This document shows, piece after piece, positions 25,855 to 45,737 of a DNA stretch of 64,000 nt; positions within the stretch are counted from its first letter, which is position 1; every line of letters begins with the position of its first letter. The notes below the pieces were generated by a model. The model saw nothing but the letters and a program-made list of their open reading frames with translations, did no database searches and was not told the DNA's origin. Origin of the DNA: Nitrospirota bacterium (GTDB lineage Bacteria; Nitrospirota; Thermodesulfovibrionia; Thermodesulfovibrionales; UBA9159); NCBI GenBank assembly GCA_963699545.1, contig CAVOUE010000003.1:544001-608000 (forward strand), given 5' to 3'. The position numbers and the translations under genes were made by a program.

Positions 25855-25882
25855 ATTCTTCTCTTAAACATCAATACGTTCA

Positions 25883-25956
25883 TGTGTCGCGGAACCATAA
25901 CTTGTCGCAAACGACAGATTATGGTTCATTTACACGGTGCGACAAAATATGGTTCC
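25883..25956. repeat. tRNA-proximal transposon end with 3 TnsB-type sites
   Basis: 8-bp terminus TGTGTCGC; GGAACCATAACTTGTCG (25891-25907); inverted copies at 25912-25927 and 25940-25956. Confidence 0.85.
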
Positions 25957-26226
25957 AAGGTGTTACGCCCTAAATGGGGATATCTTTAATAACGGCAGCC
26001 GATTACACGTAGTAACCCTTTTTCTTGGGCTCCATGGGATAAAACTGAGAGGTAATCACTGACGAATAATATATTTGTAAGGTTTCACTAGGGTGGAACT
26101 GCTTGAGTTCTGGCATAACGTCAAGGAAGCAGAGCCCGACGTTATCGTTATAAAAGAGATTTTGGGCGGCTAGGTCGCTAACGAACTACTGTATGCGGTG
26201 GCATGACATCACCGCTGAGACCGTTC

Positions 26227-26616
26227 CTATTCATCTCTACCGTTCGTCTCTTCTTTGTACTTTCTCCGCAATTGAGACAGGGCGAGAGCATCGACCGTCA
26301 TGCCGGCATATGCCACAGCTATCCCAAAGAGTATTACGAGATCCAGAATATAGAACTTTGCGGCTCCATCTGAAAAACCATGCAAGATAATCCTGCATAT
26401 TATGAGAGCAGCGACGATAATAAATACGACTATCGACCAGTACACCACACGTCGTACTGGAATTTTAAAGGTAGCGCCCGTTGTCGCATTTTCAGCTGCC
26501 TCAAGGGTCTTCTGAGCGTTGTATATGGCACCCATGACCAGGACCAACACGATAAAGGGTGGAGCGTTTCCGTCTATCAGACCGCTGAGTTTGTGCGCCT
26601 CGATCACTTCTTGCAA
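26227..26616 (-). CDS. Hypothetical membrane protein (about 3 TM)
   Basis: 129-aa ORF with three hydrophobic stretches, overlapping the upstream gene. Confidence 0.6.
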   Translation of the reverse strand: MQEVIEAHKLSGLIDGNAPPFIVLVLVMGAIYNAQKTLEAAENATTGATFKIPVRRVVYWSIVVFIIVAALIICRIILHGFSDGAAKFYILDLVILFGIAVAYAGMTVDALALSQLRRKYKEETNGRDE

Positions 26617-27404
26617 CCTGTGCTCCTCAGCTTCTGTATCTCTGCCACACTGTAGTCGTTAAAATCCTTCAGACCATTAATGTCGATACATTGTTTGACC
26701 TGCTCAAGTTCCTGCTGCGACAAAAGCAGGTAGTCTTTGTCACGGACACATTTCGCGAATGGCATGGCAGACTTCTTCATCCGTCGGGTCCGGCGAATGT
26801 AATTCTTCACCTCGTATCTGTTCTCCCGGAAATGCACAGACTGTCTGTGGGGCTCGTTGGGCGCATGCGGATATTCAAAGTATAGCTCCCCAGTGTAGAG
26901 GTTTGCTCTGAAATGTCTGTTATGCCGAGTGGGCATCACATACAGGTCGACCAGCCCGTGCGCTGCAGCCGTAAGGGCAAAAGACTCCTGATTGTCGTCC
27001 ACCAAAAAGACCGGGCCCGCGAGCATCGTCACTGGTACGTTCGCTTCCTTCAAGATGCGCAAACGGTCATAGAAATCCTGGCCGTACACCCTCGGTGCTG
27101 CCTCTCCGGCCACAATGACAATCTTTTCTTTATAAAGAAGGTTGTCCAGCCATTTGCCGGACAGGAACTTGTATCCCGTTGTGCCCCTCGGAAAGTTCAG
27201 GAAGCGAAGCACCATTTCCTTGCGGGGCGTGTCATAGGCGATAACAGTGTATTTGAACGAGCTCCCGAAAAACAGGTCTCGGAACCAGAGAACAAAGACC
27301 GCCGGTGGCAGTATAATAACGGCAAAGAGCAGGAGAAAAAGGTTAATGCCCGAGAGGTTGCGGAAAAAATCTACAACTTGTTGCGCTATCCCTTGCAGTT
27401 CCAC
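26604..27404 (-). CDS. Hypothetical protein, N-terminal TM plus soluble alpha/beta domain
   Basis: 266-aa ORF with G-rich RBS and own promoter. Confidence 0.65.
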   Translation of the reverse strand: MELQGIAQQVVDFFRNLSGINLFLLLFAVIILPPAVFVLWFRDLFFGSSFKYTVIAYDTPRKEMVLRFLNFPRGTTGYKFLSGKWLDNLLYKEKIVIVAGEAAPRVYGQDFYDRLRILKEANVPVTMLAGPVFLVDDNQESFALTAAAHGLVDLYVMPTRHNRHFRANLYTGELYFEYPHAPNEPHRQSVHFRENRYEVKNYIRRTRRMKKSAMPFAKCVRDKDYLLLSQQELEQVKQCIDINGLKDFNDYSVAEIQKLRSTGCKK

Positions 27405-27438
27405 GAATCCACCCCCCCCTCCGTCGTACTATCTACTG

Positions 27439-27467
27439 AATTTACCAGACTATTTTGAAATTGTCAA
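27439..27467 (-). promoter_or_regulatory. Sigma70-type promoter for the 27404 operon
   Basis: TTGACA-N17-TAAATT on the minus strand. Confidence 0.55.
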
Positions 27468-27579
27468 GGGCTTGTACTGGGCGTGTCAAGGCAAAGCCTA
27501 GGTCCGAGGCCATCGTAAAAGCAATTTCCAATCAGTGATGGATGTTCGAACTGAGCGGAATATCCATCTCAGGGAGTAG

Positions 27580-28983
27580 TCAATTGAGCCTTAATCGGCA
27601 GCCGCTACCCGTGAGATTAGTAATCACTTCCTCGCAGATTCTCTTGCACGCTGCCCTTTCGTCCGGCTTCTGGCTGACTGTATCTCTGCCCCCGATATCT
27701 AAAGCAACTAATTTTTGCGTTGGCCGTATCCCTTGATGTATTAGCCTGACTGCGCTTTCTTTGTACAGGGCGCACTTATCCTCAAACTTCCGGTTTTTCA
27801 AGGAGTGCCGGTGTGCTTGAAACCGCTCATTCATTTTCCTGGCAAGAGCTCCGAATGTACGAAAAAGAGTGCGGCGGCTGACACCAATCTTCATGGCTGC
27901 TACAGCCACACTGACCGGAGGGTTCACACTCACAAGCGTTTCGAGTTGCCGCTTCACTGCCTTTCTATCGAATCTCCGCGTCTCTCTTTCACGAAAGGAC
28001 CTTCGGCTGCTCGTATGCGCGTTGACAATCTCTGTTCCTTCAAAATCAACATGAGCCCCCAGCATCACATCAGCTATGGAACACCCGCACGAATACGCGA
28101 TCTCAACTGTCTGTGGAAAGGTTGGTAAGAACCCGCCGTTCATCCATCCATGTAACGTGGTTTTCTTGATGCCCAACAGCCGTCCAAAGATAGCCGCTTT
28201 TCCTCCGGCAAAATGCCGTACAGCATCTCTAAGGAACGCAGGGATCCCGCAACCAGCAACGCCATGAGCATCAGCCTTCAGCATCTTCATATCGCCTAAC
28301 AGGTCCGCTACGAGTTGCGCCCGGTCCACTTCATCCTGCGAGGCGCTTTTTATCAATGCTTCATAATTTCGTGTCAGGAAGCGCCCGCAGGAGTCACAAT
28401 ATCCCGATAGGTGTTTAATCTGTCGTGTCAACAGAGGCGATAACCCACTGCATTCGCATCGGTTGATCAACTTGATCCTGTGTTTTGGACAGGCATCGAC
28501 AGCCGCGATTGCCCAAAGAAGCTGCCCGTAGACCCTGCCCTCTTTAGCCGCTTCCTCAAAACACAGCGGGCACCATTTCTTTGCCTGGCTGGTAAGCCGC
28601 TGCTTGTTCGTATACGGCCTCAAAGGAACCAGTGTCAGATCAACAAGGTTTGCCTGCCCTGTCAGCTCGCTCAGGACCTTCGCCCATCTCTCCGGTGGGG
28701 CGCCGATCCCATTGAACAACGGCATGTTCCATACGGTGAAGGCGCCATCGCTTCGGCGCTCACCTTCGCCGACCATTCGCGGGATTATCAGTTCTCTCGC
28801 CAGGGTCTTAGGCGACAGATGGTGAAGATGGGCAAGGGCAAGATAATAACTGCTGAGGCTTTCCCTGTATGGGGTTCCCATCCCCATCGGCTTTAGTGAC
28901 GCCAGAACTGATCTCGAGGGGACCCGTGCATACGGGTCCCCTCCTACCAACGGATAATCCTCGAGCTCGTCGATTGCCGTCAC
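27580..28983 (-). CDS. tniQ: TniQ/TnsD target-selector protein
   Basis: ESLSSY, WCPLC...W...CPKH..L...C.C...C..CG Zn motifs; C-terminal HTH-like segments. Confidence 0.9.
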   Translation of the reverse strand: MTAIDELEDYPLVGGDPYARVPSRSVLASLKPMGMGTPYRESLSSYYLALAHLHHLSPKTLARELIIPRMVGEGERRSDGAFTVWNMPLFNGIGAPPERWAKVLSELTGQANLVDLTLVPLRPYTNKQRLTSQAKKWCPLCFEEAAKEGRVYGQLLWAIAAVDACPKHRIKLINRCECSGLSPLLTRQIKHLSGYCDSCGRFLTRNYEALIKSASQDEVDRAQLVADLLGDMKMLKADAHGVAGCGIPAFLRDAVRHFAGGKAAIFGRLLGIKKTTLHGWMNGGFLPTFPQTVEIAYSCGCSIADVMLGAHVDFEGTEIVNAHTSSRRSFRERETRRFDRKAVKRQLETLVSVNPPVSVAVAAMKIGVSRRTLFRTFGALARKMNERFQAHRHSLKNRKFEDKCALYKESAVRLIHQGIRPTQKLVALDIGGRDTVSQKPDERAACKRICEEVITNLTGSGCRLRLN

Positions 28984-30074
28984 GCCGCCTTCTTCTCGGT
29001 AGCGGTTTTGGCGATCAGTATCCTCGAGCCGAAGATGGTCTTCTCAATTTCTACCTCTCCCTTCAATGTCTCTTCGAGGATGGATGTGACCTGCCCTTCG
29101 GTAAGTAGCGCCTTTGCGAGACAGGCATCCGACCATTTCCCATTGTTCTGTAAAAGAGCGAACGCAAGTGCCCTTTGCATAGTTTCCTTCATTGTGCCCA
29201 CACAGCCAATGCAGGACTGTATCAGCTCACCGGACCACGGCGTCAGGTCTGGAACTCCTTTGATCGGATAGAATGCCTGCAGTTTGGCGATGCTTTTCGT
29301 AAACGCCTTCTCGTCCTCCGGAATTCCCGGGCGGTACCTCTGAAAGTGCACAATGGCGGTCCGCCGCGCAACCTGACCGCTCAGGCCCATCAACTGATAA
29401 AGGTCGTAGGAGCCGATCAATGCCAGGGTGAGGTTAACCCCTTCGAGCACGGTCAACGCCTTCAATGCGTCCATGTGAGCGGCCAGCGCATCCCCTCTCG
29501 CATTCCGTATGAGATGGACTGCCTCATCGATGATGACCAGGAGAGTGTTTCGGTAACGCAGGGCATCTTCAACGGCCATCCGGAGTCCGGCCACGGTACT
29601 CCCACCAGTGACTTGCTTTACGGACAGGCGGCCGTCAGAAAGCCGGAATTCCTGCTTCTTGTCAATCAACGGATCGATGAGAGCCTTCCCGAGTTTGATG
29701 TAAAAAATACGCCAGGCAAATTTCTTCTCTCCGGAAGACGGCGCAGAGATCATAACTGCAGGAATAAAACTCAGGTCCTCCAACATTTCAGCATGATGCG
29801 CTTTGATGATCCGCTCCAGAAGCGATGTTCCAAGCGTTGTCTTGCCTGCCCCAGTCGGGCCGATCACCAGGGCAATATCCGTCCCAGATCCCGGCAGGAC
29901 CATGGTTCCCAGGTCGTCAAGGATCGACGCCACCCTTGGGTGTTTCACCCGCACCCGCCAGAAATAGGCAAGCTTTTCATCATTAGAAGAGAGTAGCATT
30001 GCCTCCTCAGGGGTCATGTCTTTCGGATTAATCGCTGGGTTGATCTTAGAATAGTTCGTATTCTTCCTCCTCAA
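28980..30074 (-). CDS. tnsC: TnsC/TniB AAA+ ATPase
   Basis: Walker A GPTGAGKT, Walker B VIIDEA, GQVARR; lies between transposase and tniQ. Confidence 0.9.
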   Translation of the reverse strand: MRRKNTNYSKINPAINPKDMTPEEAMLLSSNDEKLAYFWRVRVKHPRVASILDDLGTMVLPGSGTDIALVIGPTGAGKTTLGTSLLERIIKAHHAEMLEDLSFIPAVMISAPSSGEKKFAWRIFYIKLGKALIDPLIDKKQEFRLSDGRLSVKQVTGGSTVAGLRMAVEDALRYRNTLLVIIDEAVHLIRNARGDALAAHMDALKALTVLEGVNLTLALIGSYDLYQLMGLSGQVARRTAIVHFQRYRPGIPEDEKAFTKSIAKLQAFYPIKGVPDLTPWSGELIQSCIGCVGTMKETMQRALAFALLQNNGKWSDACLAKALLTEGQVTSILEETLKGEVEIEKTIFGSRILIAKTATEKKAA

Positions 30075-32784
30075 TATCGGCCATCGGTTCCTGGACCGCT
30101 GGCGCTGAAGTATCTATAACCGAAGACGAAGGCTGAGGCACAGGGGGGCATGCCAGATCAGTAGGAGACTGGGGCGTAAGATCCTCCACCGTCGTCATGC
30201 CCAGGCGCTCATACACTATCCGCGCCTCACTCTGCTGCTCCCTCAGCCTTTCGTCGAAATTCCTTGCATCCAGTACCGTCATCCATTCAGCTATACGTTC
30301 GGGCGATAGGTCCTTCTTTTGGATATTGTGCTCTTTCGCCAGCTCTTCAAAGGCATAGCGCAGCTCTATCACGGTATACTGTCGGAGCCGCCAAGCCAGT
30401 TTGGACTCGCATTTATGCCACTGCTTGTTTACCAATGCATATACGAACCTCACATCCCATGGATCGATCCGGATATCGACGGGGTTCTTATCCAGGCTGG
30501 CAGCCCTGAAGGCATTGCTCCAGTACCAGATATGATTGATCTTGACGCCGCGCTGGCCGTCAATAATGCGGGTCCCCTGGGCGTCAGGCGCCGGGCATGT
30601 CTCGATAAGGAACAGACGGTCGAAGCGGACAATGCGGTGCAGGCGCATCCCGGTATCAGTCATCCGTGTTACGAAGTGCTTCACAGGCTCCTCCCCATGC
30701 GCCGGATGATTCTCGGTGCCGTAGAGATTCTGGAAATAGTAGTCCAGCGCGCCATGCAGTGCCGGCAGCGTCCATTCCACAAAGTTCTTCGGGTTTACGG
30801 ATTTGGTGACGGTGCGGACGTGCTTCATGAGCTGGGTATTACCTTTCATATTATGGATTAGCTGAGATTGGGTCGTTCCGAAGAGACGCTCCATTACCGA
30901 GCCGTGACGCGGCTGGCCTGCCGGACGATACCTGATGCTGCACCCATAAAGCTTGCAAACACGCTTGAACTCACGCGACTTAAAGTCTTTTCCGTTGTCC
31001 AAAATGAGCATATCAGGCATACGTCCGTGCCTTCTCACGATATCGCGAAGGACCATCATGCAGGATTTGTAGCTCGGCGGCTCAAAGGACAAATAAAAGC
31101 CGACCACCCTGCGGGATTCGGCGTCGATTGCCAGGGAAAGCCAGGCATGCCACTTTGAGTTCTTTTGCCTGGGGGAGCGGAGCAGGATATCCAGCGGCGT
31201 ATGATCGATATGCACATACTGGAACGGACGGACACCATGTATGGCCTCGGTGAGCTTCAGATACCAGACGATGGGCTGGGTCTGGTAAAAGGCCCTTTTG
31301 CCCTTGCGCTGACGAATAGATATAAGTCTGTCGACTTCCTTATTGAAGGTCTTTTGCGAGCAGGGCTTCAGACCGAGTGACTGACAAACACCCAGGAACT
31401 CTTTGTACGCCGCACTTTTGTTGATGTTGGTGGGAGTGTTGACTTCCTTTTTAACGAAATCTTTTATCGCAGCGATCAGGGCCTGCGGAATCTTCCGGAG
31501 TCGGTTTCCACGGTCCATCAGCTTCGGAACGAGGGCCAGCATCTGATCAATGGCGCTTTCTCCTGCTTCCTTAGCGGCTTTCCGGAGGCGCTGCATGGTG
31601 CGTTTAGATTTTGTAACAAACTGTGGCGCTACGCCGGCATATTCAAGCTGCCGTGCTCTTTCGAGCGCCGCGTCCATATACTTGGGTGATATGGCGGCTA
31701 TTGGTTCATCATTCGAATCGTGATGCACAGAGGATCTGATAATGAGCTTGCCGGCCGCATACTGCTTTTCCAATACTTCCAGCGAAAGCTCAGTGGTGCC
31801 GTCATCTGTCGAGAGCATTACGGACTTCTGCCCCACAAGATCAATCCGATAGGTCCTGCCGTCATAATCGACTTCCGTCCCTACAGCAAACGATACGTCA
31901 AGACGATCTGGCTCATTGATATTGCTGGCAGATTCAATCCTTTGATAAAATGCAAGCGTGGTCTTATCGCGATAAACACGCGCCCTCTGCGTCTCGGCGA
32001 TATCATCATTCATAAGATCGAAAGCTATGTGTCCGTCCGCAATGGCCTTGTAAATATTGTCGGCCGTTGCCAAACCCGAGGCATCTGCAACCGGTTCTCC
32101 TTCTGTGTCAACCTCAGATTCGTCACGGTCTCTGTATTGCAGGAGGTCCGCGATGGTGAGCACCGCCTTTTCGGCAAGAACGCTTTTAAGAAGATCTACT
32201 TTCCTCTCCTCAACGGGCGGGCAGGACGGGTCCATGTAGGCGGAAAGGAATTCAAGGTTCTGCACATATTGGCGTGGATGCTCATCCGCAGAACGGATCC
32301 TGTAGGTTATGCCCATTTTGGCAAAATGCTCCTCTACGATAGGGAAACGCCAGCCGTCATCTTCCTTAATAAATCTGTCTGGATACTTCTTGGCAAGTTT
32401 TTCGAGCCGCTTTTCCTCCCGCCATTCCTCGATGAGTATCTGGTCCTCCCGGATGATGAGGAAATCCGGCCAATGTTGTACGCGCGAGGGTTGGGTTTTC
32501 CCCTCAGCCGTGGAAACCAGGTCCAGTTCACAGGGCTGGGCGTAGTATTCAAGGACAAAGGAGTCATGCTCGCACTGGACGGCAGTCGGGAACTCGACTT
32601 TGCGGCTTTCGGTGCCTATAGGCCTGCCCATTTTCCTGCTGAAGTACCAGGTAATCACGTTACCGGAATGCGACTGGATATCCCTTACCGGCGCTTCCTT
32701 CCTCGCCTTCTCCACTAAACGGCGGCCCGCCGTTGGAGTACCCAGTCGGTCAAACAAGGCATTTAATTCAATAGGACTCAGCAT
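30046..32784 (-). CDS. Fused TnsA-like endonuclease/TnsB DDE transposase
   Basis: N-terminal S.KM...ES..E...EYYAQP...PDFL..EEWR; C-terminal HIDHT / LDNG / MERLF; RBS AAGGAGG before ATG at 32784. Confidence 0.9.
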   Translation of the reverse strand: MLSPIELNALFDRLGTPTAGRRLVEKARKEAPVRDIQSHSGNVITWYFSRKMGRPIGTESRKVEFPTAVQCEHDSFVLEYYAQPCELDLVSTAEGKTQPSRVQHWPDFLIIREDQILIEEWREEKRLEKLAKKYPDRFIKEDDGWRFPIVEEHFAKMGITYRIRSADEHPRQYVQNLEFLSAYMDPSCPPVEERKVDLLKSVLAEKAVLTIADLLQYRDRDESEVDTEGEPVADASGLATADNIYKAIADGHIAFDLMNDDIAETQRARVYRDKTTLAFYQRIESASNINEPDRLDVSFAVGTEVDYDGRTYRIDLVGQKSVMLSTDDGTTELSLEVLEKQYAAGKLIIRSSVHHDSNDEPIAAISPKYMDAALERARQLEYAGVAPQFVTKSKRTMQRLRKAAKEAGESAIDQMLALVPKLMDRGNRLRKIPQALIAAIKDFVKKEVNTPTNINKSAAYKEFLGVCQSLGLKPCSQKTFNKEVDRLISIRQRKGKRAFYQTQPIVWYLKLTEAIHGVRPFQYVHIDHTPLDILLRSPRQKNSKWHAWLSLAIDAESRRVVGFYLSFEPPSYKSCMMVLRDIVRRHGRMPDMLILDNGKDFKSREFKRVCKLYGCSIRYRPAGQPRHGSVMERLFGTTQSQLIHNMKGNTQLMKHVRTVTKSVNPKNFVEWTLPALHGALDYYFQNLYGTENHPAHGEEPVKHFVTRMTDTGMRLHRIVRFDRLFLIETCPAPDAQGTRIIDGQRGVKINHIWYWSNAFRAASLDKNPVDIRIDPWDVRFVYALVNKQWHKCESKLAWRLRQYTVIELRYAFEELAKEHNIQKKDLSPERIAEWMTVLDARNFDERLREQQSEARIVYERLGMTTVEDLTPQSPTDLACPPVPQPSSSVIDTSAPAVQEPMADIEEEEYELF

Positions 32785-32821
32785 CGTTGACCTCCTTTTA
32801 AGGTTAGGCAACATGGCATCC

Positions 32822-32947
32822 AGTTAGATAAATCTAACTGAGCAAGTAAATAAAAAGCATTATTTGGCAGTATGTTCTTTCATGTTAGAAATATCTTACA
32901 ACATTTTGGCCTTGACAGTCAAGTAAAATGTTAGGTATAATTTACAT
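32822..32947. promoter_or_regulatory. Divergent promoters with three operator palindromes
   Basis: TGTTAG-N6-CTAACA-like sites at 32822-32839, 32883-32900 and 32929-32946; TTGACA-N18-TATAAT (+) and TTGACT-N18-TAAGAT (-). Confidence 0.75.
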
Positions 32948-33568
32948 ATGACGATCGGCGGCTATATGAAGGAAAAAAGAACATGGCTCAGACTGTCCCT
33001 GCGCGAGGCAGCGAAAGCGACAGGCATATCCCATGTTCACATTAAAGACATAGAAAACGATAAGATAAAGCCAAGTTTTGAAAAAATTATGCAGCTTCTT
33101 AAGGCCTATAATGCCGATATTCAGGGGTTCCTGAGTGAACTGGGCTTTCTGCCGCAAAACGTCGAGTCGGCCTCCATGGGGGAATCAAAGCCTGTGCCGC
33201 TTATTTCGTGGGTGGCCGCCGGACGGTTCGCGGACACCGATGCATTTCAGCAAGGTGAGGTTGCAGAATGGGTCGCCTCCGATGTGAAGGGACAAGATGT
33301 CTTTGCTTTGAGAGTAAGAGGCGATTCCATGGAGCCCGAGTTTACTGACGGCGATATTATCATACTGGACCCTCACGTAAAGCCTCATTCTGGGGATTAT
33401 GTGATAATAAGGAACGATGAAGGGGAAGCAACGCTTAAACAGCTTAAACAATATGGTAATATCCAGGTGTTGCATCCTCTGAACCCGAAGTACCCGGACA
33501 TAGAGTTATCGGGTGATCATCAGTATGTGATTGTTGGGAAGGTTGTGGAGAAGAAAAAGGGATATTAA
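32948..33568 (+). CDS. XRE HTH + S24 peptidase repressor (CI/LexA-like)
   Basis: N-terminal HTH; VAAG cleavage site, GDSM serine, TLKQ lysine. Confidence 0.9.
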   Translation: MTIGGYMKEKRTWLRLSLREAAKATGISHVHIKDIENDKIKPSFEKIMQLLKAYNADIQGFLSELGFLPQNVESASMGESKPVPLISWVAAGRFADTDAFQQGEVAEWVASDVKGQDVFALRVRGDSMEPEFTDGDIIILDPHVKPHSGDYVIIRNDEGEATLKQLKQYGNIQVLHPLNPKYPDIELSGDHQYVIVGKVVEKKKGY

Positions 33569-34822: not shown

Positions 34823-34857
34823 AGATGGCCTGTAAGGCTTCATTTCTCTGAGCGCCC

Positions 34858-37368: not shown

Positions 37369-37486
37369 TCCGCACCTTCTGAAAAGTATACCTCTTTTTT
37401 ATCTAAGAAATACTGATCTTTAGATGTGTGGAGTGTTTGTAATAGATGGCCATTCCACTTCCCCAGCTGTCTTAAGCGTAGTAGAT

Positions 37487-37538
37487 AGGGGCACTATAAG
37501 TTAACCATTGGTGAGAAGAATAGTGCCCTTTTTGTTTT
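37487..37538 (+). terminator. Long hairpin with T-tract
   Basis: AGGGGCACTAT...ATAGTGCCCTT followed by TTTGTTTT. Confidence 0.45.
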
Positions 37539-38215
37539 ATGAAAGGAGAAAGAAAGTGTTTAAGCCACCATCTGCATTTAAGAAAGCCGGCGGTGAGAAC
37601 CGGTTGAATGCACTTTTGTCGTTAATGTCGCACAACAAGCGTCCCAATGGCGACTTTTGTACAATCAGTGTCCAAGAGAAGAAAACAAACACCTTAGGTT
37701 GGTGTGATAATGCCTTGAATGTCAGGCTACGGCTTGATTTATATGACGCGCAGCGCTGCTTTAAGTACTCCACTACTGTCTATAATGCTGTGTACTACTA
37801 CTATGGCGTCGCGACTTGTGGCAGGAGGAAAGATGTCGAGCTTCGCCTGGTATTGATTCAGGAGGACGGTAAAGTCCTTGACTCCGTGACGATTCATTCC
37901 TTAGAACGCCCTGCAGAGGAGGGGTACGGCGTTGAGGATCATAAGCATTATGAGTATCATGCCGAGGAGTTATATCGCGCCGAGGAGATTTGCTTTTCCC
38001 CTGAGAGCCCGATGTATTTCAGTTTATGGTTCGATATGAAATTATCGGGAGAGAATTCTGCCCATCAGGTCAAGGTGGATAGCGTTGGGGCATATCATGC
38101 TATCAAACAGGAGTATCGGAGGCATAAGGGTGGATGGGACAGGTTTACCATGATCATAGTAGATCACCTTCTGAACAATGACACACTGATAGACAAAATC
38201 AACGTGCGGTACTGA
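37508..38215 (+). CDS. Hypothetical protein (true start possibly near 37625)
   Basis: Long ORF with no recognised motif. Confidence 0.55.
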   Translation: MVRRIVPFLFYERRKKVFKPPSAFKKAGGENRLNALLSLMSHNKRPNGDFCTISVQEKKTNTLGWCDNALNVRLRLDLYDAQRCFKYSTTVYNAVYYYYGVATCGRRKDVELRLVLIQEDGKVLDSVTIHSLERPAEEGYGVEDHKHYEYHAEELYRAEEICFSPESPMYFSLWFDMKLSGENSAHQVKVDSVGAYHAIKQEYRRHKGGWDRFTMIIVDHLLNNDTLIDKINVRY

Positions 38216-38338
38216 GAAGTGGTTTCCCCGGCCTTTGATCGAGCCCCTTCAATCTTTATCCTTTCGGAATAAGTATCCCTGAGGAAGACACTTAGGTTTA
38301 TTTCCTCTTGACTTTTGTATGTAATTGTTTTTTAATTG

Positions 38339-38510
38339 TCTCAAGGGCTATGCGAAGGTCCGGACCGCCCGCAGGCGTTGAGAGCCACGGTGAAGCACAC
38401 AGCGATTCGCAACGATGTTTGTAGTTTCTCTGATCGACAGGGCACTTCCCTAAATATAGGGCTGCTCGATCGTCAATGCGGGCATTCGAGTATCAGGGCA
38501 GCAACTATAT
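38339..38510 (+). ncRNA. Candidate structured RNA or long 5' leader
   Basis: Follows TTGACT-N17-TTTAAT promoter (38308-38336); nested stems and loop-to-upstream complementarity. Confidence 0.4.
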
Positions 38511-38526
38511 TGAAGGAGGCATAGTG

Positions 38527-39862
38527 ATGTCGACAGAACAAGAGAATTTCCCCATTGATATTGCAAAAAGAAAAGCAAAGCATCTCCATTCCATCCTGAA
38601 AGTTCGTATCCCTGATATCTCTCTCGGCGAATGTCTTAACAGTTATGCAAGAATGGAAGGGGCGCGGGATTGGAATACGCTCAGTGCATCCTTCAAAGCA
38701 CAATCTCCCTATGAAGAAAGCCCTTATAAGAAGATAGGGACTTTTGTGGACGAGGTCTTGCGGCCTATGATGACGCAAATCGCCGGTGCACACGGGATGG
38801 AGTTTAGCGCCCCGGCGGCCTATTTTGTGGCACAGAAGGACGGGAGACGAAAACGTTGCAGACTCTCGACCGTCAAAGGAGCTCGAAGTGACCTTTTGGC
38901 CAAAAGGTCTGAGAAATAGCGATTTCAGTTTCAGCATCGAAGTGAGTCCTGCGGCTATTACTCAGGAAAGGGCAGAGATTACCTTTATGTTTCCGGAGCA
39001 GGCTTGCGGAGATGCAACGAGGATTCTCTCCAGTGAGAGGATGCCCTACGTTCTCACGCCAAGCCTTATGCGAACAACGGAAAAAGGGAGAACTATGTAT
39101 CGTCTTATCCTGGAGCTGGAGCCGTTCTTCTATTTCGCCGGCGAGGCTGGGGAAATGTGGCAAGCTGCTGAAAAGATTGAGCATGTCCGGCAGGAAGTTG
39201 AGGAAACCGTTGCCAAGTATGCAAAGCTCAACGCTGTTTTTCAGAGGCTGTCCAGAAAATGGGGCGATAAAAAACTCCTGTCCAGCTTTGAAACGACGTT
39301 ATGGGAGGTCTTCACCGGAAAGCCCCGCTTTATGTCCGCGTCGACCGAATTCCATCGTGCGTCTTTCGGAGATGTGACTCTTACAGCCCATGTGGGAGAC
39401 TCCGGGCCTTACCTCAAAGGTCCTGAAGGGAATCTCAAGCTCGGTGTGAGTTCAATAATCTACCTCGAAGGAGGCGATAAAAAGCCTGCCGGGTATTACG
39501 TCGCGAAGTATGGCAACGATTATGAGGCTGACATTTACCTGAAAGGCATCGCGAAGGAAGGTATTGCAGACATTACAGCCGAATTTGGAGTTCCCATGGA
39601 CTACAAACTAGCAGTGCAATTAGGGATACCCCTGGAAGAGGTCAAAGAGGAGTACGTCGCTTTTTACAGATCGCGTGCATTCCTTGGGCTGCAGGACTGG
39701 GTTTCCAGAAACCGGAGCTTTGCAAAGAGAATAAGCAGACAGGCTCCATATCTCCCTGATTGGTACGAAAGGGCTACCGGTCAGCGTCCGATTCCGGATT
39801 CGGATGAAGACTTGGACCAGGAAGGTGGAGCGATAAGGAACCGCCGCAGGTCAAGGAAATAG
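38527..39862 (+). CDS. Hypothetical protein with N-terminal 'glyoxalase superfamily' (Glyoxalase_8-like) helical domain; frameshift near 38843
   Basis: AKRKAKHL...LGECLNSYARMEGARDWNTLSA; RBS AAGGAGG; removing one G joins the two ORFs (QKDG-DENV). Confidence 0.6.
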
Positions 39863-39870
39863 GGCTGCAC

Positions 39871-39900
39871 GGGGAAAGGGGTTATTATTCCCCTTTCCCC
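39871..39900. terminator. GC-rich inverted repeat
   Basis: GGGGAAAGGGG-ttattatt-CCCCTTTCCCC. Confidence 0.5.
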
Positions 39901-39942
39901 GGAAATGCGAGATCGCATAACACTCTACAGGAGGATTTTGTC

Positions 39943-40572
39943 ATGGCAGCTTCCCAGGAGGAGAGAGTAGAAAGGGCAATGAAGAAGCTCGGTATCGAGG
40001 ATGATACTCCACTCGATGATATCTGCGATGTTGTCACGCGCATGTTCGCTTATGGTGGGGTCGCCTATATGTCGTCTGACTGGCGAGAGCATACACATCT
40101 TACCCGAAGACAAGCCGGACGTCTCTTTGAAGGTTACTTTAGAGGGTTCCAAGGTTTCAAGAACTTCGGGACTGGTCCAGGCGGGATTGAGAGATATGGA
40201 TGCAGTCGCTTTAAGGTTCACTATTACCATCCGGAACTAAGGGCTGCGTTCGACCTTGTATCCAAAACAGGGGTAGCGCCTTCGCGGCTGGCTGGTGCAA
40301 GAGCAAAAGTCCGTTTCTTCAAGGATCTGAAAATTACCTATATCCCCTTGCCCTATTCAAAGCTTTATGAAATGGTCGTGGAGCGGGTAAGAAAGATCAT
40401 CAAGAACAAGGAACTCAACAGCAATAAGGCGGTTCTGTCTTACTTCATTGGAGACGCCCCCATTGAGCCTATGGAAGAAATGGGCCAAATATTTGGAACG
40501 ATATTTGGAGATCTCTTTGACAATATTTTCGAAACGAAACCGACAGTGAGAAAAGAGGAGGCCACTATCTGA
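39943..40572 (+). CDS. Hypothetical protein
   Basis: 209-aa ORF with RBS AGGAGG. Confidence 0.65.
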   Translation: MAASQEERVERAMKKLGIEDDTPLDDICDVVTRMFAYGGVAYMSSDWREHTHLTRRQAGRLFEGYFRGFQGFKNFGTGPGGIERYGCSRFKVHYYHPELRAAFDLVSKTGVAPSRLAGARAKVRFFKDLKITYIPLPYSKLYEMVVERVRKIIKNKELNSNKAVLSYFIGDAPIEPMEEMGQIFGTIFGDLFDNIFETKPTVRKEEATI

Positions 40573-40726
40573 CAAGAAGGATATCGCCAGTAGGGTCAAA
40601 GAGCGCAGTGCCACTGTGGACATTGCTTTCACTCCCAGACGCGGGGTAGGCTGGAGTGCCTTTGATTCCGGCGTTTTGGCCCGCGTTTGCTAGGTCTCGT
40701 TAACAAAAGAATAATTAAGAAAAGTT

Positions 40727-41146
40727 ATGAGTATACGGGCTCGCATTGAGGATGCTTTGTTCCTATATCAAAACGGCAGATATGAAGGCGCATTTCTAAA
40801 TGCACTCATTGCCGTTGCTGCAACTGCTCGTGTCGAATCTCCTGGCCGCGCTACAAGCGATCGTGAATGTTTTGAGAAGTTCTTAGACAAGCGGCAGCGA
40901 GGCATAATCAAGGTCGAATATAGAGGCGAGCTACATACGGTTCCTCATATTTTATATAAATGGTTTAGATGCGAACTGGTACATGAAGGCAAGCTGCCCA
41001 TTGACGTTCAATTTATAGCAACAGATGATTTGTCTGTCAGGGCTGGCGGTGCTCCAGAATATATTCTAAAGATCTCTCATGGCTGGTTTCATTGGCTCAT
41101 CAACTCTGTTATAGAGGCCCCCTGCAATGCAAATGAATTCAAATGA
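40727..41146 (+). CDS. Small HEPN-like protein
   Basis: Helical N-terminus and RCELVH (Rx4H) motif. Confidence 0.55.
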   Translation: MSIRARIEDALFLYQNGRYEGAFLNALIAVAATARVESPGRATSDRECFEKFLDKRQRGIIKVEYRGELHTVPHILYKWFRCELVHEGKLPIDVQFIATDDLSVRAGGAPEYILKISHGWFHWLINSVIEAPCNANEFK

Positions 41147-41240
41147 TGAGTCTGTTGCTTGCATTACGCGACGTGGGAGCGTGCGAAACAGCCTTTTCAA
41201 GAATTATGTGATCTGATATTATCTTGCCATCGGACTAATT

Positions 41241-42284
41241 ATGGAAACACATGACTGGAAGAGTTTTGAAAGGCTTGTGGCGGCAATTAACGCCACTAAA
41301 ATGAGAGGGGCCGACGTCAGGTGGAATGATAAGATTAATGGTCGTCAATTCGATGTCAGCATCCGATTTAAATTTGGAGATTACGAATATTTGACCGTCA
41401 TAGAGTGCAAGAACTACGGGTCCAAGGTGGCGGTGGAAAAAGTTGAAGCCTTCATCACAAAAAGTGGGGACGTAAAGGCTAATAAGGCGGTAATGGTATC
41501 GTCCTTGGGATTTCAGGAAGGTGCAATTACAGTTGCCAAACAGCACGGGATTGATCTGATTACTTTAAATGAAAAAGTCGAGTATCCCGAAGAAAAGCTA
41601 ACCTCGATTGTGATTCCAGCTGTAAACATTTATGGCGTATCTTTATTAAGAAAAGGCAAAAGACAACCGATAGAGTTTGAGGGCGGCTCTAAATTACGTT
41701 ATTCGCTTTCTCATACGTTTGTGATTCAAGAATCGAAGAAAGCCGCTTTGGATAGCATCTTGTCGGATTGGGTCAATAAGAATTACGAAAAATTGTCATA
41801 CGCTGAAAGCATGCATGAAATAGCTTTCCCTGAAGGTTCCATTGTTGAAGTTTCCGAGAATGGTATTCAAAACCGTATTAGAGCAATTGCATTTAAGGCC
41901 CGCTTTATAGATACGACCCCCTCAAAGGGCCCGATGTTAGATCCACATCTGCATGAAAGAATGAATACTTATGTAGTAATGGATAATATACTCAACGGAA
42001 CCACAGAAAAAATTAAGCTGACAGACATTGAGCACGGTTTTGATACCAAAGTAAAAGAGGGATACTTCTACGTGTCGCCTCAATCAGGGCAGACTTATTT
42101 CTGTGAGAAGATCGAAGGTGACTTAGTTACTTGGTGGCTCGTAGAATCGTACCAGCACGGCCAAAGAATAGACATACGATTTACACAAGAGCTTGAGTAC
42201 TCCAAGTATTATAAGGAGATATTGGATGAAAAGATAATTAAGAGGTTGAGGAAATCGATAAATGAACTCTTGAAAGGCAGCTGA
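41241..42284 (+). CDS. Mrr-like PD-(D/E)xK restriction endonuclease
   Basis: WKSFERLV...QFDV...IECKNY...VEAF...GFQEGA. Confidence 0.8.
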   Translation: METHDWKSFERLVAAINATKMRGADVRWNDKINGRQFDVSIRFKFGDYEYLTVIECKNYGSKVAVEKVEAFITKSGDVKANKAVMVSSLGFQEGAITVAKQHGIDLITLNEKVEYPEEKLTSIVIPAVNIYGVSLLRKGKRQPIEFEGGSKLRYSLSHTFVIQESKKAALDSILSDWVNKNYEKLSYAESMHEIAFPEGSIVEVSENGIQNRIRAIAFKARFIDTTPSKGPMLDPHLHERMNTYVVMDNILNGTTEKIKLTDIEHGFDTKVKEGYFYVSPQSGQTYFCEKIEGDLVTWWLVESYQHGQRIDIRFTQELEYSKYYKEILDEKIIKRLRKSINELLKGS

Positions 42285-42389
42285 CAAAATTAACCCTTTT
42301 CCGCTGCGAGCCACATTTTGGTAAAACACGATGCGCCAAACTTTAGTTCCACTTTTGCACGGCGCGACAAACTATCGGCAACGTCACAC

Positions 42390-43175
42390 TCAGACTGCCT
42401 TCTTGTATCTGCATCTTGGAAAATTACTGCATCCCAAGAACGGTTCCCCTGCAGACTTACCACTCTTGGCAACGCGCTGTACGAGCTGCCCGCCACAGCG
42501 AGGGCAAATCGTTGTTAACTCATGACGCTCGCGCAACGAATCGAGGTGTGTATCGCGGCTTATAGGATTATCCTGTTTCAATTTTCTCAGCGATGTCTCT
42601 ATCTCAGTAACTTGTTGCGGTGTAAGGCAAGGCTGTCTGAAGTCTTTGATGTATGGAACGAGGCCGCTGCTCATCACATTAGAAGGCATAGGCGTCTTGA
42701 ATGTGCAATCCCCTATAAAGAAGACAATCGGCTTAAAGATCTCATGATCCAGGCGAAGATACTCAGACAGACATTTTGTATGCCGGTAGTTCTGCTTAAT
42801 GGGGTTTTGAAACTGGCTCTTTTTACCAAAGATTGACTGTGTCCATTTATCGTTTTCCGGGGAGCCGAATATCCACCCTTTTATATTCTTCGTTTCTATG
42901 ACGAAGATCCCATATACCGAGACGATCACATGGTCAATCTGTGTTGTGCCATCTGAGGCGGGTACAATTACGTCGTCGATTCTGCGGTAGGTATCTCTAT
43001 CCAGCAGCGCCCACATCCCGGCAGAAGTGATTTTTTCGCCGATCCAGCCCTTGACGGTCTTACGTCTGCGCTTTAATAAGGCTATGACCACTAGAATGAA
43101 AATAATAGGGATCAAAAACACTAATCCTTGGGAAAGCCCTTTCAAAAGAGCAAGAATCATGTCAATTGATGTCAC
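42390..43175 (-). CDS. NERD nuclease-domain protein with N-terminal TM and topoisomerase-type Zn ribbon
   Basis: KGWIGE, TTQIDHV, IFVIETKN, QNPIKQN..H; CPRCG...FLGCSNFPRC. Confidence 0.88.
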   Translation of the reverse strand: MTSIDMILALLKGLSQGLVFLIPIIFILVVIALLKRRRKTVKGWIGEKITSAGMWALLDRDTYRRIDDVIVPASDGTTQIDHVIVSVYGIFVIETKNIKGWIFGSPENDKWTQSIFGKKSQFQNPIKQNYRHTKCLSEYLRLDHEIFKPIVFFIGDCTFKTPMPSNVMSSGLVPYIKDFRQPCLTPQQVTEIETSLRKLKQDNPISRDTHLDSLRERHELTTICPRCGGQLVQRVAKSGKSAGEPFLGCSNFPRCRYKKAV

Positions 43176-43198
43176 GATGGAAGTCCCTTCTCATCAGC

Positions 43199-43894
43199 TC
43201 ATTGACTACTTGTAATCTTGATGTCTTGGAAAAACTTTTGAGCTTGTGGGAGAATGTAATCAACATATTCAGGCTTTACCCTGACATATCCTGAGACCTC
43301 TCCGTTGTCTTTATCTTCAAATTTCGGGTCCAGCTCGATGAAGCCCTGTGCAATGTGTTTTCTTAATGCCCCGTCTTTGGTGTTAAGCAGACCCCTATTG
43401 TGGACTATCGCATTTCTAAGAGTCCGAAGGCCAACTATTTCCGGCCACTGAGCATTCTTTCCGAGGTCCAAATCCACATCTAAGACTTTTTCCATATAGA
43501 GCTTCGCCTGGTCCAGATAACCTCCCTTGAGGTCACTGTACCGTAAATCAACCTTTTCACCCTTTTTCTGTCTATCATGGCGAAGTGTATCACACAGGAG
43601 GCCCATTCCTGCCTCTATGCTGGCATAGAGCATCACGACGAAGGAGTCCAGAGCAAGCTTTCCGAAGACGTAGTCTATTTTTTGGTAATCGTCCGAGAAA
43701 AACTCTAAGTATTCCTCTTGCTCCTTTGCGTCTAAGCCTTTCGCTCCTTCTTCTAAACGCTCTGCAGTTAGCTTCTGCTCTCGATCAATGGCAAACTTCA
43801 TGAATGCATTATAATCCAGCAAGTTATCGAAGCCACTTATGATAAATTTGTGCATCATAGGGGCTAAACTCATAACATCTCCCTTGCTTGGCAT
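43199..43894 (-). CDS. HEPN-like protein
   Basis: LRTLRNAIVHNRG (Rx4H) motif in a helical protein. Confidence 0.6.
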   Translation of the reverse strand: MPSKGDVMSLAPMMHKFIISGFDNLLDYNAFMKFAIDREQKLTAERLEEGAKGLDAKEQEEYLEFFSDDYQKIDYVFGKLALDSFVVMLYASIEAGMGLLCDTLRHDRQKKGEKVDLRYSDLKGGYLDQAKLYMEKVLDVDLDLGKNAQWPEIVGLRTLRNAIVHNRGLLNTKDGALRKHIAQGFIELDPKFEDKDNGEVSGYVRVKPEYVDYILPQAQKFFQDIKITSSQ

Positions 43895-44143
43895 ATCACA
43901 CTATTGACGTTCCCCGCCGTCGTTATTTTGTTTTTTGCCATGCCGATATTATGCCAGCTTTAGAATTTGCAGGCAATAGAAATGCAATACTTGATCACAA
44001 GAAGTCGTGGACTCCTGGGGCAGAGTGAGCACGGCGCTATTTAGTGATACGGACTTGACCATTATTCTAAGAGAATTATTCCAGTAGAATAATTCCCGAT
44101 GGCGGATGGGAACGGTTAGGTTGCATTAGAAGTAATGTAGGGA

Positions 44144-45142
44144 CTATTTTTTCTTCATAAAATCAGGAATCATCTTCCCTATTTTTAAGAGCATTACAAT
44201 ACCTGTCATAGTGAAAAAGAAAATAATAAACCAGCTCAAAGAGAAGATAACATTGAAAAGATATTGTTTGGAATCCAACAGGGAAAGAGATAAGTTGGTT
44301 TTGAAAAGATACTCTGAATTTAAATTAATACTATCGGAACCATAGACGAGAATACCCACCATGCAGAGAAGAACTAATAGAGAGACATAGGAAATGTTTA
44401 ATATAAATCCCTGTATAAAATATTTTCGTATAGCATTGTCATGCTGGTTTTCTGAGGTAATGATGCCGAGGAAGATACCAAGTAGTCCGACGTAAGATAC
44501 ATATACGGCAGAAATGGTTGTTAAGGCTGTCTTCAGTGTATCTGGAGCAATGACTCCAAAGAAATGAAAAGGGTAAACGCTTAGAACCAGAACAGCAGAA
44601 CATGCCACTAATACAAAATGGAACCAATTAGGAATGTCAAAAAATTCGTCATAAGGTCTTATTAGAATCCACTTAACAAAAAATATAGCAAATCCGAGCA
44701 TCCATATTGGCTGTTTCAGCTTATAAGCGAGATAAAGAAGAACTATCAATCTAAAGGGCTTAATGATAAAATCGTTGATATTATGACCGTCAGGAGAGGT
44801 GACATAGGCATTCCCAGTCTTTATCAGAAAACGGATTCTCAGGACATTCATAATTAGGTACGTGACAGCTAATATGAGGACACCGACATCTTTATCGGTA
44901 CAGTAAATTATGATAAAGGAAAGAAAATAGAACGCATTTTGGGATAGTGTCTGACTGCTAATTCTCAATTTGCTATGCTTCTCATGACGATGTGCTTTTG
45001 AAAAAGGTTCTTCTGTTAAAGATGCCTTTTTTCTCGTAAAGACTCGAAATATTAACCGTGGCACATCCGCAAGCATAAATAGAATCCAGGCCATTCTTAT
45101 CCAAGTGACAGGTGTCATATCATTCACCAAACCTGCAATCAT
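44144..45142 (-). CDS. Multi-pass membrane protein (AT-rich)
   Basis: 332-aa ORF with about 8 hydrophobic segments. Confidence 0.6.
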   Translation of the reverse strand: MIAGLVNDMTPVTWIRMAWILFMLADVPRLIFRVFTRKKASLTEEPFSKAHRHEKHSKLRISSQTLSQNAFYFLSFIIIYCTDKDVGVLILAVTYLIMNVLRIRFLIKTGNAYVTSPDGHNINDFIIKPFRLIVLLYLAYKLKQPIWMLGFAIFFVKWILIRPYDEFFDIPNWFHFVLVACSAVLVLSVYPFHFFGVIAPDTLKTALTTISAVYVSYVGLLGIFLGIITSENQHDNAIRKYFIQGFILNISYVSLLVLLCMVGILVYGSDSINLNSEYLFKTNLSLSLLDSKQYLFNVIFSLSWFIIFFFTMTGIVMLLKIGKMIPDFMKKK

Positions 45143-45390
45143 ATCTGATTATAGTTGATATACTTGGCAATTTTCTCGCCGTTATTAATTTGCTTTGCTT
45201 CGGCATCCGTATAACCTTTGTCTCTAAAGCGTTCCTTTCCGGAAGAAACCCTACATTTATAGCAGAAACGCCATAGTGTACAACACGTTCAGCCAAGACA
45301 AGCAGCCGTGATTTCGAGGACATTAGATTGTCACGAAAGAAAATCACCGGGAGGATATTTTAGGGTATGCCAGCACCCTTCCTCCTAGTC

Positions 45391-45542
45391 TACACGGTGC
45401 GACAGGATATGCTTCTGATTCTGCACGGCACGACACATTATGCTTCTATGGGTAGTTAAATTCTGGCAATTAGACCGGTGATTTGAATAGTAAAACGACA
45501 GGTTATGATTCCGAAGGGCGACACATTATGCCTCACGGCACA
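45391..45542. repeat. Distal transposon end with 4 TnsB-type sites
   Basis: CGACA-NN-(T/A)TATG-NYTC-like sites at 45400, 45431, 45496 and 45519, then ACGGCACA terminus. Confidence 0.85.
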
Positions 45543-45737
45543 GTTCAGTTCGTTCGTTGGCTTCCCGAAATCCTCAACGGACGTCAACAGGTTTCGTTTT
45601 GGCAGGGAGAAGTATTTCTGAATGCAGGTGATGTTCAGGCTGGAAGCCGGGAGACGGTATAGACCAACGCTCATTCCTGAGCCTTTGGCATAACAGGGAG
45701 ATCCAAACGTCAGGGCAAGACTACAACCTAAACTAAT

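Follow-up and report, generated by a model that had tools for sequence, protein, structure and literature searches.

A Cas-free Tn7-like transposon with a fused TnsAB transposase downstream of a tRNA-Leu gene in a Nitrospirota bacterium

Tn7 generates a 5-bp target-site duplication, has TGT/ACA termini and asymmetric ends with multiple transposase-binding sites, and inserts at a position displaced from the sequence that is recognized (attTn7, downstream of glmS). In the tRNA-targeting branch of related elements, TnsA and TnsB are reported to form one polypeptide, and most members reside at tRNA genes that a TnsD-like protein recognizes (PMC9881144, Hsieh & Peters, NAR 2023). The same source describes binding sites in both orientations within the left end as a hallmark of this fused-TnsAB clade and reports that >99% of insertions by McCAST, a CRISPR-associated transposon (CAST), are left-end-proximal to the target. 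[quoted passage not shown] Here, we analyze a Cas-free element of this kind in a 64,000-nucleotide stretch of a Nitrospirota genome (GenBank assembly GCA_963699545.1, contig CAVOUE010000003.1, positions 544,001 to 608,000), referred to below as the window.

The element spans 19,660 bp, from a TGT at 25883 to an ACA at 45542. Judging from its sequence, it is very probably a Tn7-family transposon of the fused-TnsAB, tRNA-homing type that was inserted by a TnsABCD-like mechanism. Its target, boundaries, and core genes are as follows.

25768-25854, plus strand: tRNA-Leu(CAG) gene with encoded CCA (ARAGORN; Rfam RF00005, 49.5 bits)
25855-25882: 28-bp spacer from the end of the tRNA gene to the element (direct reading)
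25883-25956, plus strand: left (tRNA-proximal) end, starting TGTGTCGCGG, with three transposase-binding sites
27580-28983, minus strand: tniQ, TnsD-type target selector, 467 aa (Pfam TniQ, E 1.6e-16)
28980-30074, minus strand: tnsC, AAA+ adaptor, 364 aa (Pfam AAA_22/TniB; PDB 8fcu/8v32/9bw1)
30046-32814, minus strand: tnsAB, fused transposase, 922 aa (Pfam; PDB 9bw1_M)
45389-45542, plus strand: right end, finishing ...CACGGCACA, with four transposase-binding sites
45543-45547: right copy of the target-site duplication, GTTCA (direct reading)

The product of an insertion is present in full at this locus: an intact tRNA gene, a GTTCA duplication, TGT...ACA termini, three plus four transposase-binding sites, and intact genes. 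The tRNA-Leu(CAG) gene, which is the sole tRNA gene in the window according to both ARAGORN and Rfam, is undamaged by the insertion, its sequence ending GGCACCA at 25854, and is presumed to be the attachment site of the element's TnsD-type TniQ. The left copy of the duplication, GTTCA at 25878-25882, forms the last 5 bp of the spacer. A 5-bp match at positions preset by the TGT and the ACA would arise by chance about once in 1024. The 16-nt motif CGACANNTTATGNTTC is found with zero or one mismatch at seven places in the 64 kb, all of them at the element ends. The left-end sites lie within 75 bp of the terminus at 25892-25907 (minus strand), 25912-25927 (plus), and 25940-25955 (plus), and those of the right end lie within 145 bp of the terminus at 45400, 45431, 45496, and 45519, all on the plus strand. 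At up to three mismatches the motif has 13 matches, a total at chance level; the signal is the clustering of the best seven. The left end thus carries sites in both orientations, as it does in relatives, and the right end in one orientation only, and by this arrangement both termini are true, asymmetric transposon ends. In a whole-genome scan with a right-end-tip pattern, the element's right end was the only match; at the left end this pattern is offset by one base, and the scan is a weak negative for extra copies. An earlier reading of this DNA, made without database searches (the sequence-only reading), had placed the TGT start at 25883, 28 bp past the tRNA-Leu CCA, and the ACA end at 45542, with GTTCA on both sides. 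Each of these positions is exact.

The genes tnsAB, tnsC, and tniQ form a stop-free minus-strand operon in which adjacent genes overlap by 29 and 4 nt, and the roughly 5.3 kb of tns coding sequence has neither a stop nor a frameshift. A single TnsAB open reading frame (ORF) bears TnsA_N, rve (E 1.9e-10), and Mu-transpos_C domains in Pfam, with TnsA_N scoring 26.2 bits, slightly below the cut-off of 26.5. Residues 23-864, the TnsA-like part included, match the 898-aa fused transposase 9bw1_M (E 4.6e-133), and other full-length homologues of about 900 aa exist. In the TnsB part, the DDE-type columns D537, D606, and E642, which we take to be catalytic, align to solved TnsB proteins and are invariant in 39 of 39 aligned homologues. 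The corresponding columns of the TnsA-like part are E69, E74, E82, D117, and E130-W-R132; E69, E74, E82, and E130 are invariant in all 39 homologues and D117 in 38 of them, and position 132 is R, K, or H. TnsC matches the chain common to 8fcu, 8v32, and 9bw1 (E 8.6e-40), and its Walker A (GPTGAGKTT) and Walker B (VIIDEA) motifs both align to solved TnsC.

The element has one TniQ, which is also the only one found in the genome. Its residues 20-426 match the TnsD of 8v32/9bw1 (E 2.6e-39). The N-terminal zinc finger is of the CCCH type (W137-C-P-x-C141 ... C165-P-x-H168; C196-x-x-C199), with invariant Cys and His columns. In an AlphaFold (AF2) model, which was built from a 12-row alignment and is of moderate quality (mean predicted local distance difference test score, pLDDT, of 68), the C-terminal part appears to contain a helix-turn-helix (HTH) of DNA-binding type. 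The best Foldseek match of the model is 8v32_J, from the TnsD-TnsC-DNA complex (E 6e-15; template-modelling score, TM, 0.52), with local HTH matches to P22 c2 and XRE-type repressors and a weak fold match to Tn7 TnsD(1-318) (E 0.16). Each of the three core proteins is thus matched by sequence to a component of the solved TnsABCD machinery for tRNA homing (PDB 9bw1, 8v32). The sequence-only reading had proposed a fused TnsA-TnsB, intact tnsAB, tnsC, and tniQ genes, and a single long HTH-bearing TniQ. The fusion is one 922-aa ORF; the genes are free of stops and keep their functional columns, the TnsA-site lysine (Arg132) excepted; and the TniQ assignment is borne out by both sequence and fold.

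On this basis, the following course of events is proposed. By homology to the solved cyanobacterial TnsABCD, the single TnsD-type TniQ would bind the 3' part of the tRNA-Leu(CAG) gene and nucleate a TnsC ring on the downstream DNA. TnsC would then recruit TnsAB bound to the two asymmetric ends, and the element would be joined into DNA cut with a 5-bp stagger some 28 bp beyond the tRNA gene, with its left end towards the tRNA. The mechanism put forward in the sequence-only reading, with the single TniQ reading the tRNA-Leu gene, is supported.

No Cas domain was found in the element's ORFs with Pfam, PADLOC, NCBIfam, or PHROGs, save a negligible Cas1a match (E 9.6e-4) on an Mrr-like protein. No direct repeats of at least 20 nt lie within 200 bp of each other, as a CRISPR array would have, and an Rfam scan returned the tRNA and no other RNA match. 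The element, having no Cas effector genes, no array, and no second TniQ, is not a CRISPR-associated transposon, and its earlier description as Cas-free is correct for the ORFs scanned and for the array.

Related loci were collected with a profile of 39 TnsAB homologues searched against one-genome-per-species contigs, which matched 114 stretches; 94 were confirmed, and the best 80 were kept. Their hosts are Nitrospirota, Acidobacteriota, many Betaproteobacteria, some Gammaproteobacteria, cyanobacteria, one Chloroflexia, and one Bacillus. Among these 80 loci, tnsC is present in 78 and tniQ in 71, and ARAGORN places a tRNA or transfer-messenger RNA (tmRNA) gene facing the operon end in 27. Spacing was measured in a set of 28, from which L035 was left out (its call is on the other strand) and to which the metagenome locus L106 was added. 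The left-end tip, matched by script to TGTG..CGT.AAGCATAA or TGTGTCGCGGAACCATA with at most four mismatches, lies 26-31 bp past the 3' end of the tRNA or tmRNA in 24 of the 28 loci. Two of the four misses, inspected by eye, have a candidate end, with ATG in place of TGT at 29 bp in L049 and a diverged tip at 27 bp in L080; L074 and L093 have no end recognizable by eye. Among the targets are tmRNA as well as tRNA-Val, -Met, -Ser, -Gly, -Leu(CAA), -Asn, and -Pro. The downstream sequences are unrelated and the distance to the tRNA is kept, so recognition of the tRNA gene itself is the economical reading. The window's 28 bp falls inside the range, in keeping with the fixed insertion distance that the sequence-only reading had supposed.

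On a maximum-likelihood TniQ tree of 29 rows (L088 was dropped for lack of a TniQ frame >300 aa), the target label changes 11 times against a minimum of 10, compared with a mean of 20.3 for shuffled labels and 0 of 200 shuffles as low, a result that is inflated by relatedness, although the Val and Ser target groups each cover two named host families. In a FastTree phylogeny of TnsAB with 75 rows, from which six loci with fragments <750 aa were dropped, the 17 cyanobacterial rows group together as a separate clade (support 100). The window TnsAB lies outside it, in a Nitrospirota clade (support 100) inside a Nitrospirota/Acidobacteriota group whose sister comprises 37 rows, mostly betaproteobacterial. 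By these comparisons the element is of the same kind as the published fused-TnsAB tRNA-targeting clade, on a different branch. The phylogeny called for by the sequence-only reading therefore sets the element apart from the cyanobacterial clade. That reading had described such elements as best known from cyanobacteria, implying rarity elsewhere, which does not hold, as fused-TnsAB elements at tRNA or tmRNA genes are common in Betaproteobacteria, Acidobacteriota, and Nitrospirota. Its view of the host as non-cyanobacterial is upheld, since named relatives of the host MtnA at 70-78% identity are all Thermodesulfovibrionales or Nitrospirota; the host is presumably also an anaerobe, as that reading had it.

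Three side observations concern the related loci. In L027 (9068-9594), L029 (6179-6569), L036 (4780-5204), and L068 (5574-6100), from Holophagaceae and Geothrix, tnsAB is preceded on its own strand by a tmRNA gene, at a distance of about 340-1360 bp from the tnsAB match, which suggests a sub-clade with its attachment-site-proximal end beside the start of tnsAB rather than after tniQ. At L042, located 3' of tRNA-Ser(TGA), two tandem copies of the left-end tip TGTGCCGTTAAGCAT precede the first full transposase site; the repeat may have arisen by partial duplication or have been left by an earlier insertion. In the betaproteobacterial loci L039-L050 and L100 (~9470-10010 in each), a conserved ORF of about 160-180 aa, oriented like tnsAB, runs up to the tnsAB start or overlaps it; no Pfam family was matched in the three examples scanned.

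Compared with described systems, the element shares with Tn7 a DDE transposase (TnsB) and a putative TnsA-type nuclease, an AAA+ TnsC, a TniQ-domain selector like TnsD, a 5-bp duplication, TGT/ACA termini, asymmetric multi-site ends, and an insertion point displaced from the presumed recognition sequence. It differs from Tn7 in that TnsA is fused to TnsB, a tRNA gene serves as the target, there is no TnsE, the left rather than the right end faces the target, and the left-end sites lie in both orientations. The traits ascribed to the tRNA-targeting clade in the accounts of Hsieh & Peters and Faure et al. are present: a fused TnsAB, a tRNA-proximal left end, sites in both orientations, and a TnsD-like TniQ of 467 aa. 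PmcCAST (type I-B2, Peltigera membranacea cyanobiont 210A) resembles the element in the sizes of its TnsAB (about 900 aa), TnsC (about 370 aa), and TnsD (about 460 aa), and in its reported homing downstream of a tRNA gene (PMC11915506). In contrast to PmcCAST, the window element has no Cascade genes, CRISPR array, or second small TniQ, resides in a Nitrospirota host, carries a CI-like repressor gene beside tnsAB, and has Arg where PmcCAST has the TnsA-motif Lys; PmcCAST's own sequence is absent from the TnsAB tree, in which the window falls outside the clade of cyanobacterial loci retrieved. The type I-D elements McCAST and CyCAST, as reported, share the tRNA-Leu site, the left end by the target, the 5-bp duplication, and a landing about 30 nt past the tRNA. 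However, McCAST termini are given as TAC/GTA rather than TGT/ACA, the window TniQ is closest to a TniQ at tRNA-Asn, and the window has no RNA-guided second pathway.

The betaproteobacterial and Acidobacteriota elements (L030-L100) are alike in their tnsAB-tnsC-tniQ order reading towards the left end, in a tip of the form TGTG...CATAA with a palindromic site pair, and in their distance of 26-31 bp from the RNA gene. A few hundred bp separate the end of their tniQ from the left end, whereas in the window two ORFs intervene, and the betaproteobacterial copies have the co-oriented 160-180-aa ORF upstream of tnsAB rather than a divergent repressor. TnsAB identity to the window protein is 35-38% for the betaproteobacterial copies and 45-50% for those of Acidobacteriota. 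The element belongs to a kind that is widespread outside cyanobacteria and has a mechanism already established by genetics and structures.

The freshest feature of the locus, which looks new, is a lambda-CI-like repressor of the self-cleaving type with two conserved palindromes, its putative operators, facing tnsAB.

32815-32947: divergent control region, 133 bp, with two palindromes and two promoters
32948-33568, plus strand: lambda-CI/LexA-like repressor, 206 aa (Pfam HTH_3, E 1e-10; Peptidase_S24, E 3.5e-28)

The repressor gene is divergent from tnsAB. The C-terminal domain of its product aligns best to lambda repressor 3bdn (E 4e-13), and its Ala-Gly pair (in VAAG), Ser (in GDSM), and Lys (in LKQLK) align with their counterparts in lambda CI, where they presumably form the cleavage site and the catalytic Ser/Lys dyad. 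The protein thus has the marks of LexA/CI-type self-cleaving repressors, namely the HTH, the Ala-Gly pair, and the Ser and Lys residues, and is predicted to cleave itself. Two 16-bp palindromes, GTTAGATAAATCTAAC (32823-32838) and GTTAGAAATATCTTAC (32884-32899), lie 61 bp apart and are the only matches inside the element at up to two mismatches to their pattern. A perfect sigma-70-type promoter, TTGACA-18-TATAAT (32912-32941, plus strand), faces the repressor gene, and a minus-strand promoter matching at 9 of 12 positions points to tnsAB, its -10 box overlapping the second palindrome. Both palindromes and their spacing are kept in place in the related elements L021 and L022, whose repressors occupy the same place and are 69% identical to that of the window. 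In L023 and L024, HTH_3 proteins lacking an S24 match occupy the same divergent position. All five elements of the sub-clade therefore have an XRE-type regulator facing tnsAB. The sequence-only reading had called the element a three-protein system; the three core proteins stand, but the description omits this conserved regulator gene.

We tentatively propose that the CI-like repressor encoded by the element keeps tnsAB-tnsC-tniQ silent by acting at the two palindromes as putative operators. One of these would overlap the -10 box of the promoter that probably serves tnsAB; the other would lie in its leader. A more specific version, which is possible but doubtful, is that the silencing is gated by the SOS response: RecA-stimulated autocleavage of the repressor after DNA damage would relieve it, such that TnsAB, TnsC, and TniQ would be made only then. 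Element-borne regulators have precedents among the CASTs, as the Xre-family RtaC/RtbC (type I-F3) and the MerR-type CvkR (type V-K) are reported to regulate them (PMC11406308). These resemble the window's regulator in being HTH repressors encoded beside transposition genes; the window's protein differs in having an S24 domain like that of lambda CI and LexA. Literature searches found no description of a self-cleaving repressor controlling the tns genes of a Tn7-like element.

The closest copies point to repeated, recent, and independent insertion in this sub-clade. Within the host order, TnsAB or TnsB is matched at E 1e-30 or better in 8 of 317 genomes, a count that takes in the window's own genome (G000), and full-length TnsAB fusions number four: that of G000 and three at 73-75% identity. 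The closest genome copy is L021, in genome G100, with TnsAB 74-76% and TniQ 61% identical. Its left end lies 31 bp past a tRNA-Asn(GTT) gene, its right end lies about 30 kb off, and CTGTT is found on both sides. The 16-nt motif of the window misses the ends of L021-L024, which have differing site sequences, and these ends were located via the conserved tip. In L021 the right end abuts a second left-end tip that is nearly identical to the window's own sequence. No tns genes were found within 10 kb behind this second left end, and G100 has one TnsAB match only. The arrangement (L021 20990-21110/L128 9430-9650) is a tandem insertion into an occupied site at tRNA-Asn(GTT). The CTGTT duplication of the roughly 30-kb element overlaps the first base of the older, window-type left end; the two ends have different transposase-site sequences, and of the older element only the end is recognizable. 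At 13808-15203 of L021, tniQ is split into frames of 96 and 392 aa, and the selector is, from its sequence, probably broken.

A second relative is found in contigs of a soil metagenome run, at about 86-89% identity across tniQ, tnsC, tnsAB, and the first part of the repressor gene. The 3' half of a tRNA-Leu gene, a spacer, and the left end are linked on a single contig about 170 nt long; its spacer differs by 12 substitutions and three indels, and its left end by four substitutions in 36 nt. This would be the only second tRNA-Leu case in the sub-clade, resting on one short contig. The contigs of the run cover none of the 33.7-45.7 kb region, no read skips the element, and the run has no bearing on cargo or excision. 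A further TnsB-like frame of 726 aa, 33% identical to residues 245-900, was seen in genome G003 (contig C80, 10628-12625; L125), about 8 kb from a tRNA-Ala gene that adjoins an integrase fragment.

The far side of the insertion comprises two features.

45548-46635: lineage-specific segment, 1,088 bp, missing from the same-genus genome G001
46654-47415, minus strand: host PIN_5 ribonuclease gene (Pfam, E 3.2e-60)

The synteny of tRNA-Leu, about 50-64 bp, and the PIN gene recurs in G001 and G013. In G001, tRNA-Leu(CAG) lies 64 bp from the PIN_5 stop, with 86-88% homology on both sides, and neither the element nor the 1.09-kb segment is present. The insertion is thus younger than the split of G000 and G001, as G001 retains the tRNA-Leu/PIN junction without the element. 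The 28-bp spacer sequence also differs from that of G001. Because G001 lacks both this spacer and the 1,088-bp segment, the transposon appears to have entered the tRNA-proximal edge of lineage-specific sequence, which accounts for the failure to find an empty site with a single GTTCA. The same-genus genome G002 has dnaJ beside the PIN gene, a different synteny, and is uninformative on the empty site. Pieces of 45548-46635 are 74-80% identical to unrelated loci in G007, G017, G003, and G008. A 72-bp piece shows 82% identity to a stretch that adjoins tRNA-Ala in G003 and is followed there by a Phage_integrase fragment. The segment also holds two small Cys-rich ORFs of 78 and 59 aa. It was considered as an integrase scar and rejected, as 45548-46635 has no Phage_integrase match.

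Several results weigh against an active, tRNA-Leu-homing transposon. A flank search of 60 relatives found no sequence that joins the spacer to the right flank with a single GTTCA, and an exact 23-nt spacer (25860-25882) had 0 matches in a scan of metagenome contigs. The empty allele sought by the sequence-only reading was therefore not recovered in its single-GTTCA form; what was found is the unoccupied tRNA-Leu/PIN junction of G001, with another spacer sequence. The genome (87% complete) has one copy of the element, and no near-identical copy was found elsewhere, the nearest TnsAB among 5.8 billion proteins being 82% identical. The closest TniQ, that of L021 at 61%, sits at tRNA-Asn rather than tRNA-Leu, so the tRNA-Leu specificity of the window TniQ rests on its position and on the single short contig. 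Finally, the lysine position of the PD-(D/E)xK motif in the TnsA part is Arg132. This residue is Arg in most Nitrospirota and Acidobacteriota homologues, Lys in Betaproteobacteria and the solved cyanobacterial protein, and His in one.

Much of this evidence would also be expected if the element were a fixed relic, that is, if it had been inserted once by the same mechanism and were now an immobile genomic island whose intact frames reflect youth or another use. The single genome copy, the missing GTTCA allele, the lack of a near-identical copy, and the Arg at the TnsA lysine position all fit this account, as does decay among the relatives, with the L021 tniQ in two frames and G100 bearing a bare left end without tns genes. 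However, a relic does not readily explain the roughly 5.3 kb of uninterrupted tns coding sequence with its DDE-type and nucleotide-binding columns kept, the full sets of sites at both ends with a perfect duplication, or the intact repressor, repressor promoter, and operators, and the element is missing from the same-genus G001. We regard immobility as a tentative possibility, and lean slightly, on the state of the sequence, towards a copy that may still be able to move.

A second question is whether movement, if it occurs, would be by cut-and-paste or replicatively via cointegrates, with the TnsA part impaired by the Lys-to-Arg change at 132. The window protein, like most of its Nitrospirota and Acidobacteriota relatives, has Arg at this position in place of the motif lysine. 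The fused TnsAB of PmcCAST is reported to yield cointegrates at about the rate of TnsA-less systems, and a McCAST D106A mutant to do so in 149 of 150 events (PMC9881144). However, wild-type McCAST, which is also a fusion, is reported in the same source to give 0 of 150. The invariance of E69, E74, E82, and E130 in 39 of 39 homologues, and of D117 in 38 of 39, indicates continued selection on the TnsA site, and Lys and Arg alternate among close relatives. Moreover, the residue at position 132 does not predict cointegrates, because PmcCAST has lysine and is nonetheless reported to form them. Replicative rather than cut-and-paste movement is unlikely. It is highly improbable that the position beside the tRNA derives instead from an island integrated at tRNA-Leu by a tyrosine integrase, in which the Tn7-like element would be a passenger or chance insertion: the transposon does lie at the edge of the 1.09-kb lineage-specific segment, and the 72-bp piece does resemble the tRNA-Ala flank of G003 with its Phage_integrase fragment, but the window's segment holds no integrase fragment, the transposon is bounded by termini and a 5-bp duplication of its own, and the 26-31 bp spacing recurs in 24 of 28 loci with unrelated downstream sequence.

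The remaining genes of the transposon lie in two places.

26227-27404, minus strand: two overlapping ORFs, of 266 aa (26604-27404) and 129 aa (26227-26616), between tniQ and the left end
33689-45142: low-GC cargo (guanine-plus-cytosine content, GC, 0.37-0.51)
33689-34822, plus strand: T5orf172/MUG113-domain protein, cargo
34858-37368, minus strand: UvrD-like helicase with a Zn ribbon, cargo
41241-42284, plus strand: Mrr_cat nuclease, cargo
42390-43175, minus strand: NERD nuclease with a Zn ribbon, cargo

The 266- and 129-aa ORFs, on the same strand as the tns operon, have hydrophobic, membrane-like segments by eye. They have no match in Pfam, NCBIfam, PHROGs, or PADLOC and are missing from 80 of 80 related loci, and in the Atlas the 266-aa ORF falls in unnamed clusters only, with scores of at most 0.89. 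Both are probably cargo. The main cargo has a GC of 0.37-0.51, compared with 0.49-0.56 for the flanks and 0.49-0.55 for the tns module, whose GC is host-like; besides the genes listed, it comprises one Glyoxalase_8-like ORF and seven ORFs without a family. None of the cargo genes at 33689-45142 is present in the 80 related loci. PADLOC returned no complete known defence system from the cargo, giving generic UvrD/GajB-like helicase matches without a partner gene and a weak PglW-like match for the NERD protein; NCBIfam returned nothing, and PHROGs returned only families of unknown function, for the T5orf172 protein. These results do not allow a named defence system to be assigned. The cargo, rich in nucleases and helicases, appears defence-like from its domains and is peculiar to this copy.

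Fused-TnsAB tRNA-homing elements are the chassis that gave rise to type I-B2 and I-D CASTs and are being engineered for DNA insertion. To these, the window copy adds a compact, Cas-free, and apparently complete example from Nitrospirota, along with evidence that the rule of a left-end-first insertion at 26-31 bp holds far outside cyanobacteria. It has a single chromosomal-homing selector and no recognized second pathway. The sub-clade, one of whose selectors is 61% identical yet resides at another tRNA, should be useful for mapping specificity determinants. The CI-like repressor and its conserved putative operators provide a testable hypothesis of element silencing. None of these points overturns current understanding. 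If the hypothesis is true, derepression would, through the S24 domain, depend on RecA and DNA damage instead of zygotic induction, and SOS gating would be a mode of regulation of a Tn7-family element undescribed in the literature searched.

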